Assembly (NCBI RefSeq): GCF_016026235.1
Contig: NZ_CP065613.1
DNA length: 64,000 nt
DNA from: Escherichia coli
GTDB lineage: Bacteria; Pseudomonadota; Gammaproteobacteria; Enterobacterales; Enterobacteriaceae
Direction: 5' to 3' (one strand)
Shown here: in pieces, positions 58,491 through 58,820 of the stretch
Numbering within the stretch: position 1 is the stretch's first letter
Layout: each line of letters starts with the position of its first letter
Notes under the pieces: generated by a model
What the model was told of the DNA's origin: nothing
Database searches by the model: none
Seen by the model: the letters and a program-made list of their open reading frames with translations, nothing else
Program-made: the position numbers and the translations under genes

Positions 58491-58820
58491 ATGAAACGCT
58501 TTCCGCTATTTCTTTTATTCACCCTGCTCACGCTGACCACCGTACCGGCCCAGGCCGATATTATCGACGACACCATTGGCAATATTCAGCAGGCGATTAA
58601 CGATGCTTATAACCCTGACCGTGGGCGAGACTATGAAGATTCGCGCGACGACGGCTGGCAGCGTGAAGTGAGCGACGATCGGCGCAGACAATATGACGAC
58701 CGCCGCCGCCAGTTTGAAGATCGCCGCAGGCAGCTGGACGATCGCCAGCGCCAGCTTGATCAGGAGCGTCGGCAGCTAGAAGATGAAGAGCGGAGAATGG
58801 AAGATGAGTATGGGCGATGA
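58491..58820 (+). CDS. yjdP: Secreted low-complexity charged protein YjdP (109 aa)
   Basis: Signal peptide MKRFPLFLLFTLLTLTTVPAQA followed by repeated Asp/Arg/Gln units (DDRRRQ...). Confidence 0.8.
   Translation: MKRFPLFLLFTLLTLTTVPAQADIIDDTIGNIQQAINDAYNPDRGRDYEDSRDDGWQREVSDDRRRQYDDRRRQFEDRRRQLDDRQRQLDQERRQLEDEERRMEDEYGR

Follow-up and report, generated by a model that had tools for sequence, protein, structure and literature searches.

The yjdP gene and its product

The window analyzed here is a stretch of 64,000 nucleotides of Escherichia coli DNA (contig NZ_CP065613.1 of assembly GCF_016026235.1), and the subject of this report is the yjdP gene, together with the repeats that it contains and the noncoding sequences that flank it. 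The gene occupies positions 58491–58820 on the forward strand, with an ATG start codon at 58491 and a TGA stop codon at 58818–58820, and encodes a protein of 109 amino acid residues; an earlier note on this DNA, made from the sequence alone, had placed the open reading frame (ORF) correctly and quoted an identical translation. Upstream lies a remnant of rpiB, and downstream is the convergently transcribed phnP.

The identity of the gene is clear. YjdP matches the NCBIfam equivalog NF041443 ("DDRRRQL repeat protein YjdP") with a score of 148.1 bits (E = 7.4e-44) against a curated cut-off of 90, and the match spans residues 1–103 of the protein and positions 1–101 of the 101-position profile. 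The Pfam family PF28054 (YjdP) is precomputed on all 120 of the best listed relatives, including proteins 98–100% identical to that of the window. The K-12 counterpart is b4487, located between rpiB and phnP, and its product differs from the window YjdP by a single residue (T16/S16); it is the same gene, with no essential difference, the departure between the two loci being that the window strain has the als operon and most of rpiB deleted upstream. A locus labeled yjdP is present in 5,404 of the 5,426 complete E. coli genomes. Because this is a named and curated family, the gene, its signal peptide and its heptad repeat are already curated knowledge, and the finding as first stated in the earlier note is not new. 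In the papers examined from a full-text search yjdP appears in tables or passing mentions, and we found no function reported for it.

The family is small. An exhaustive HMMER scan recovered 53 cluster representatives of 1.84 billion at E≤1e-3, several of which are fragments or compositional matches, and the named relatives are from Escherichia, Shigella, Citrobacter, Klebsiella sp., Buttiauxella, Cronobacter dublinensis and Entomohabitans. YjdP is a real protein under strong purifying selection: the ratio of nonsynonymous to synonymous substitutions (dN/dS, Nei–Gojobori) is 0.04–0.27, and comparisons with E. fergusonii and two Citrobacter loci give 0.06–0.12, with a dN of about 0.12 and dS values of 1.1–1.8, which are saturated. 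An alignment of 17 homologues places the greatest conservation in the first 18 residues of the mature protein (DIIDD[T/A]IGNIQQAINDAY) and in the heptad tract, which is nearly identical between Escherichia and Citrobacter.

Several other labels attached to these proteins were set aside. The source annotations "Skp family chaperone", "RuvC/YqgF nuclease" and "colicin uptake" are mutually inconsistent on identical or nearly identical sequences and are compositional artifacts; local Pfam matches to DUF7900, Arm-DNA-bind_5 and DUF4140 are sub-threshold at E≤1 and driven by composition; and secondary NCBIfam matches (FlbB collar, HlyD, RNase Y and others) lie far under their cut-offs and reflect the composition of a charged helix. 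PADLOC reported nothing significant. An antisense ORF of 136 residues is present opposite yjdP on the minus strand (58597–59007). Pseudogenes of yjdP are also found, with an IS1X2 insertion removing the 5′ half of the gene in strain FLI21 and an internal stop codon in rl0044, and in five further predicted relatives (P0140, P0142, P0144, P0146 and P0152) the signal peptide and N-terminal helix are kept and the repeat region is out of frame; these may be frameshift pseudogenes or assembly errors within the repeat.

The first 22 residues of YjdP (MKRFPLFLLFTLLTLTTVPAQA, encoded at 58491–58556) have the canonical layout of a Sec signal peptide, as the earlier note had described. A positively charged n-region, MKR (K2 and R3), is followed by a 15-residue h-region (FPLFLLFTLLTLTTV), which is at the upper end of the range of about 7–15 residues, and then by PAQA and D23. 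A rule-based reading identifies small residues at positions −3 and −1 (A20-Q21-A22) immediately before D23, and the junction, A-x-A followed by D(I/L)xD, is conserved in the 17 homologues. A lipoprotein is excluded, because the protein contains no cysteine and hence no lipobox (L-[AS]-[GA]-C). On these features YjdP is predicted to be exported through the Sec pathway and cleaved by signal peptidase I after AQA.

The remainder of the protein is dominated by charged residues. Mature YjdP contains 20 arginines, 19 aspartates, 10 glutamines and 9 glutamates, with a net charge of −8, and D, E, R and Q account for 77% of residues 44–109, bearing out the tract of charged repeats pointed to in the earlier note. 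The repetition is a true period of seven residues, or 21 bp: Tandem Repeats Finder locates it at 58674–58746 with a 21-bp period (3.5 copies, 75% matches, score 76), and a separate repeat search recovered three in-register 21-bp copies. There are six full units and a partial seventh (58674–58817), reading in order DDRRRQY, DDRRRQF, EDRRRQL, DDRQRQL, DQERRQL, EDEERRM and EDEYGR, and units 1–4 share 13–17 of their 21 bases. Only one position of each heptad is hydrophobic (Y68, F75, L82, L89, L96 and M103), and the residue three places after each of these anchors is, successively, R, R, R, E, E and E. The net charge by heptad along the predicted helix runs +1, +1, +1, 0, 0, −2 and −2. A gradient in this direction runs against the helix dipole and would be suited to an antiparallel pair, and we note that the acidic C-terminal heptads are also conserved in Cronobacter and Buttiauxella.

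Predicted architecture of the mature protein

AlphaFold2, run with the 17-sequence alignment, gives YjdP a mean predicted local distance difference test score (pLDDT) of 73 and a predicted template modeling score (pTM) of 0.35, and thus no compact fold, but the model does contain one continuous helix of 55 residues. This extends from residue 54 to residue 108 or 109 (58650–58817) at a pLDDT of 87–97, with means over successive ten-residue blocks, starting at residue 61, of 87, 95, 97, 94 and 83. The helix is preceded by an acidic low-complexity linker (residues 41–53, 58611–58649), which has no secondary structure, falls below a pLDDT of 50 at residues 44–49, and is the most variable segment of the homologue alignment; only these thirteen or so residues of YjdP look flexible in the model. 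Between the linker and the signal peptide is a putative amphipathic helix, D23–Y40 (DIIDDTIGNIQQAINDAY, 58557–58610), recognized from the cross-genus alignment, in which it is the best conserved segment and has its hydrophobic residues at 3-4-3-4 spacing. The N-terminal helix would be the best candidate for a binding or oligomerization surface.

The distribution of charges within the long helix is far from random. Opposite charges occur at i/i+4 in 20 pairs compared with 11.5 ± 2.5 in shuffled sequences, a number attained by 0.05% of shuffles; at i/i+3 there are 18 pairs compared with 11.8 in shuffles, and like charges recur at i/i+7 in 24 pairs. The enrichment of opposite charges at i/i+3 and i/i+4 along a long helix is that expected of a charged single alpha-helix (SAH). 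A helix of this kind would also have no hydrophobic seam and be monomeric and helical in isolation, and YjdP carries a hydrophobic stripe of one residue per heptad. The tract is probably helical mainly through salt bridges between Asp or Glu and Arg at these spacings, and the Leu/Phe/Tyr stripe may allow weak self-association.

The earlier note had predicted either a coiled coil or a disordered polyampholyte, and neither is supported as stated: disorder does not fit the confidently predicted helix, and a canonical coiled coil is not established. Disorder would mean that bulk composition alone matters, as in ion buffering, hydration or the binding of cationic peptides, and it draws on the extreme composition of the tract, the net charge of −8, the fact that alleles with one or two units fewer or more are tolerated, and co-induction of the gene with osmotic and desiccation genes (see below). 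Against it are the very confident helix prediction, the nonrandom i/i+4 charge spacing, and the strong purifying selection on the protein; the near-identity of the tract in Escherichia and Citrobacter despite the saturation of synonymous sites argues specifically against a function set by composition alone, and we consider disorder very unlikely. A genuine coiled-coil oligomer, be it a trimer or a dimer of either orientation, would make YjdP a periplasmic rod resembling Lpp with the Leu stripe as its core, and is a more serious contender. The seven-residue period is strict and indels keep its register, the change in charge from +1 to −2 per heptad and the R, R, R, E, E, E series following the anchors would be complementary in an antiparallel arrangement, and a linked-dimer AlphaFold2 model (a 30-residue Gly-Ser linker connecting two copies of the mature chain), in which the 54–108 helix is again present, has a pTM of 0.46 compared to 0.35 for the monomer, with both rods at a pLDDT of about 90. 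A PDB profile search moreover returned only coiled coils (M protein, a GCN4 fusion and designed coils). These matches are all too weak to pass any significance threshold, however (E 0.04–0.6), Foldseek found no PDB match to the tandem model, and the linked-dimer readouts are pTM and pLDDT values, which do not demonstrate contact between the helices. Each heptad also supplies just one hydrophobic residue, and a charged residue fills the second core position throughout, so the canonical a/d core is missing. A coiled-coil oligomer therefore seems to us doubtful, if worth keeping in mind, and a charged single-helix rod is favored on the sequence and the models over both a canonical coiled coil and a disordered chain.

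Among known systems, there is an architectural parallel with the SAH domains of the ER/K type described in myosins and caldesmon. YjdP shares with these a long predicted helix lacking a globular core and a dense array of opposite charges at i/i+3 and i/i+4, but its acidic residues are mostly Asp rather than Glu, its basic residues in the tract are exclusively Arg, it has a hydrophobic residue at every seventh position, and it is bacterial and predicted to be exported. Lpp (Braun's lipoprotein), a periplasmic heptad-repeat rod, is likewise a small exported enterobacterial protein in which a single heptad-repeat helix of about 55 residues makes up most of the chain; in contrast to Lpp, YjdP has no lipobox or cysteine, no hydrophobic second core position, no C-terminal Lys for attachment to peptidoglycan, and no sequence similarity. 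Spy, CpxP and ZraP are similarly small, helical, exported and induced by envelope stress, and spy and cpxP are listed in the same induction table as yjdP (see below), but YjdP lacks LTXXQ motifs and differs in composition and repeat architecture; a Pfam scan at E≤1 gave only three sub-threshold and unrelated matches and thus no membership in the LTXXQ family.

Length polymorphism, putative promoter region and flanks

The earlier note had suggested looking for repeat-driven length variation across strains, and such variation is readily apparent. Heptads have been gained and lost in register on several independent occasions, giving alleles of 95, 102, 109 and 123 residues. Among the 120 best cluster representatives the predominant lengths are 109 (56 representatives) and 102 residues (34 representatives), with lengths of 95, 100, 104–108 and 123 also represented. 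From the hydrophobic anchors, a minimum of four distinct losses of one heptad can be told apart (of the F unit, the Y unit, an L unit and the M unit), along with a double loss and a double gain. The common 102-residue allele (P0040) lacks the F unit and accounts for 2,561 indexed blocks of the contig collection, and E. albertii has both a 95-residue form arising by loss of two units and a 123-residue form arising by a two-unit duplication. Indels that break the register, such as the loss of one Arg from a CGC run, are rare singletons. Allele frequencies were estimated on 120 complete E. coli genomes, drawn as two samples of 60 at even spacing rather than by a full census, and none of the 120 carries a 21-bp deletion; heptad-loss alleles are therefore uncommon in complete genomes, though widespread in the larger collection.

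A second site of length variation, previously unremarked and missed by the earlier note, lies in the signal peptide. The segment at 58518–58544, within the h-region, contains a degenerate 9-bp repeat (TTCACCCTG CTCACGCTG ACCACCGTA), and codon comparison of the window, K-12, O157 and four other loci (L001, at its positions 1501–1866, and L002–L004) shows that this is the site at which a 9-bp unit, TTCACGCTG, encoding Phe-Thr-Leu, is expanded in other strains as (TTCACGCTG)n. The window and K-12 both carry the degenerate form (TTCACCCTG CTCACGCTG), which is presumably stable. The expanded alleles found in the complete E. coli genome samples are longer by 9, 18, 27 or 36 bp, and the translations of four of them, MKRFPLFLLFTL(FTL)nFTVPAQA, correspond to proteins of 112, 115, 118 and 121 residues differing in (FTL)n only. 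Expansion is present in 14 of the 120 sampled genomes (about 12%). The +9, +18 and +27 alleles are identical to the +36 allele over 426 bp except for the gap, and the copy number has therefore changed on a single haplotype; two strains named ST131 differ in this respect, strain 4993 having +9 and strain ST-131 having +27. With the expansion, the h-region grows from 15 residues to a maximum of 27. The usual length is 7–15 residues, and it is this shortness that is thought to set signal-peptide h-regions apart from transmembrane helices (bioRxiv 10.1101/2020.11.11.378711); because the longer forms exceed this range, we speculate that long alleles might be poorly cleaved and stay anchored in the membrane. 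We propose that the repetitive coding DNA of yjdP, comprising the 21-bp units, the CGC run and the 9-bp unit of the signal peptide, would be subject to replication slippage or unequal recombination, and that this accounts for the recurrent in-frame length alleles.

The location of yjdP at the phn/yjdM border is kept while its upstream neighbor changes, and may be rpiB, a hybrid histidine kinase, an HSP90-like gene or an SSF transporter; yjdP thus behaves as a stand-alone unit. A hybrid sensor kinase/response regulator replaces rpiB directly upstream in O157:H7 (L005), in a Citrobacter (L014) and in Entomohabitans (L011). The first seven or so codons of the O157 yjdP also differ (MKRHSTLF compared with MKRFPLFL), from which it follows that the boundary of the island is close to the start of the gene.

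When the 110 bases before the ATG are aligned, together with the 30 bases that open the gene, across 10 loci from seven genera, just one noncoding block is strongly conserved, aaTTGAGAaTcCTCCGCTAC, and it is present regardless of the gene upstream. Within it is a near-palindrome, TGAGATTCATCCAC (58420–58433, forward strand), resembling the RcsB box, whose consensus, TN(G/A)GAN4TC(T/C)NA, is defined for Salmonella RcsB (PMC7913699). The palindrome matches seven of the eight specified positions, with an invariant C in place of the last, an A. Its first three bases form the TGA stop codon of the upstream gene, both where this is rpiB (in the window, where it is the rpiB remnant, and in K-12) and where it is the hybrid kinase of O157. 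At a fixed distance of 23 nt from the box is a TAnnnT element in 10 of 10 loci, which in the window is the candidate −10 hexamer TAATGT (58457–58462), its T, A and final T being invariant, and a Shine-Dalgarno sequence, GAGG (58480–58483), conserved as GAGG or GAGA, lies 7 nt before the ATG. A simple sigma-70 scan upstream of yjdP found no full promoter, which fits a weak −35 region, and the promoter proposal consequently rests on conservation across genera. The RcsB pattern was rejected as a statistical argument, as its matches in the window are not above chance; the weight of the RcsB-box proposal comes instead from conservation and fixed spacing. The conserved palindrome lies directly against a poor −35 region, as would fit a promoter that depends on an activator, and we put the chances of direct control of yjdP by RcsB at a little better than even.

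Published expression data bear on this proposal. RNA sequencing (RNA-seq) of cells treated with a LolCDE inhibitor shows yjdP to be upregulated 9.5- and 10.6-fold, in a table that also includes osmB, bdm, wca genes, ivy, mliC, yjbEFGH and rcsA, as well as spy, cpxP, degP and RpoS-dependent genes (PMC5105897). Neither yjdP nor b4487 was found in the supplements of the envelope-stress transcriptome papers searched. A separate table combining chromatin immunoprecipitation sequencing and RNA-seq, apparently from a CsiR-induction data set, lists a peak inside yjdP and 3.5-fold repression (PMC5217608).

To the right of yjdP, the 146-bp gap preceding the 3′ end of phnP (58967–59725, minus strand) contains two related palindromic units made of C-rich and G-rich arms. 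The first, at 58844–58867, is degenerate. The second, at 58907–58943, contains an exact HPG1 21-mer, GGGAGAGGGTTAGGGTGAGGG, at 58922–58942 (one match compared with none expected), with a C-rich arm, CCCCTCGCCCCTCT, just upstream; the HPG1 "G-quadruplex-hairpin" motif and its location between yjdP and phnP in K-12 are listed in PMC5100583, and the window unit, with exact 21-mer and C-rich arm, sits in the same gap. The intergenic region has a predicted folding energy of −64.9 kcal/mol (z = −2.5), and a scan of 57800–59100 against Rfam at E≤1 identified no RNA family. The HPG1 element is a presence/absence polymorphism, missing in three loci (L001, L018 and L019) in which the convergent stop codons of yjdP and phnP are 27 nt apart (L001 1867–1893), and is an independent intergenic repeat that is not part of yjdP. 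The earlier note had yjdP immediately flanked by GC-rich palindromic repeats, which is so on the downstream side (58844–58943) and not upstream, where there are none.

On the left, the rpiB remnant (58105–58422, forward strand) is an ORF of 105 codons with two deletion junctions, defined by blastn comparison with K-12. The first deletion extends from just past the 3′ end of alsK through alsR and the first 27 or so codons of rpiB, with its junction at approximately 58207–58214, and the second removes about 150 bp more from within rpiB, with its junction at approximately 58285–58294; the stretch of the window affected is 58077–58294. The deletion that the earlier note had placed beside yjdP is therefore real and lies upstream, at als/rpiB, but the junctions are about 200 and 280 bp away, with the rpiB remnant in between, rather than immediately adjacent. 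A truncated gene of the RpiB/LacA/LacB family is annotated at this location in many E. coli genomes, and this interval is a known variable site, occupied by the OI167 island in enterohemorrhagic E. coli (PMC10128022).

Interpretation of the locus

On balance, and by a narrow measure, we think it probable that yjdP is a stand-alone gene, restricted to some Enterobacteriaceae, that encodes a small Sec-exported envelope protein in the form of a charged helical rod and is expressed from its own activator-dependent promoter. The elements of this reading that come directly from the present analysis are the identity of the gene, the anatomy of its repeats, the purifying selection, the length polymorphism and the conservation of the upstream motif, and the induction by a LolCDE inhibitor is taken from the published RNA-seq table; export and cleavage, the single-helix state, control by RcsB and the function of the protein are what we infer. 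The mature protein, 87 residues long after cleavage at AQA, would consist of the conserved amphipathic helix, the flexible acidic linker, and a rod of about 55 residues (approximately 8 nm) built of six to seven DDRRRQL heptads. Transcription would start from the gene's own activator-dependent promoter, with the RcsB-box-like palindrome abutting the poor −35 region, and YjdP would thereby be part of the envelope-stress (Rcs) response. It would most likely act as a structural or binding rod, with the conserved N-terminal helix as its contact surface.

Several observations weigh against this interpretation. Asp is a poor helix former, and the YjdP tract has no Lys, unlike the classical single helices of the E/K/R type. 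The N-terminal helix is modeled at low confidence (AlphaFold2 pLDDT 58–68), and the one hydrophobic residue per heptad, together with the higher pTM of the linked dimer (0.46, compared with 0.35), leaves room for self-association. In the promoter, the last specified A of the RcsB box is replaced by the invariant C, and the one-mismatch pattern is common by chance, with 28 matches in the window compared to 56 expected. Because the LolCDE response includes Cpx and RpoS genes, Rcs is not singled out by it, and we found no published experiment on the localization, cleavage, oligomeric state, RcsB dependence or phenotype of YjdP.

Two further explanations concern the gene as a whole. That yjdP is decaying or dispensable and serves no selected function could be argued from its narrow taxonomic range, from the pseudogenes in FLI21 (IS1X2 insertion) and rl0044 (internal stop) and the frameshifted predicted versions in metagenome data, and from its setting in a hotspot of deletions and island insertions; but a dN/dS far below 1 across genera, retention in 5,404 of 5,426 complete E. 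coli genomes, a conserved promoter block and strongly inducible transcription make this extremely improbable. The other proposal is that yjdP is a contingency locus, in which changes in repeat copy number would alter the fate of the protein, in particular by converting it from a cleaved periplasmic form to one anchored in the inner membrane as the h-region grows from 15 to as many as 27 residues. Consistent with this are the alleles of 112, 115, 118 and 121 residues that differ in (FTL)n only, the expansion in 14 of 120 sampled complete genomes on a haplotype otherwise identical, the difference between the two ST131-named strains (+9 and +27), and the usual length of 7–15 residues for h-regions, short enough to tell them from transmembrane helices (bioRxiv 10.1101/2020.11.11.378711). 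All of the repeat units are multiples of 3 bp, however, and therefore give no on/off frameshifting, failed cleavage of the long alleles is not evidenced, the variation could be neutral, and the window allele itself holds the degenerate and presumably stable repeat; we regard a contingency locus as unlikely. Decidedly unlikely, too, is the conjunction in which YjdP is at once a direct RcsB target, a periplasmic charged single-helix rod acting in envelope stress, and the subject of a rapidly mutating (FTL)n switch between a released form and an uncleaved form anchored in the inner membrane, in lineages that include the ST131-named strains.

Returning to the stand-alone envelope rod, the helical-rod and charge-pattern description, the RcsB-box-like promoter and the 9-bp signal-peptide repeat are what is added here to the curated description of the family, and none of the three is established. 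If the 9-bp repeat does alter cleavage, it would constitute a mechanism for varying the destination of a protein of a kind that we have not met elsewhere, and the repeat may also serve as a fast-evolving typing marker in the lineages that carry it. The natural allelic series in both rod length and signal-peptide length provides a ready-made set of mutants, and the predicted helical-rod architecture can be checked quickly by biophysics. YjdP is small, inducible and nearly universal in E. coli, and is among the named genes lacking a known function; its candidate RcsB-dependent promoter would place it in the envelope-stress response.

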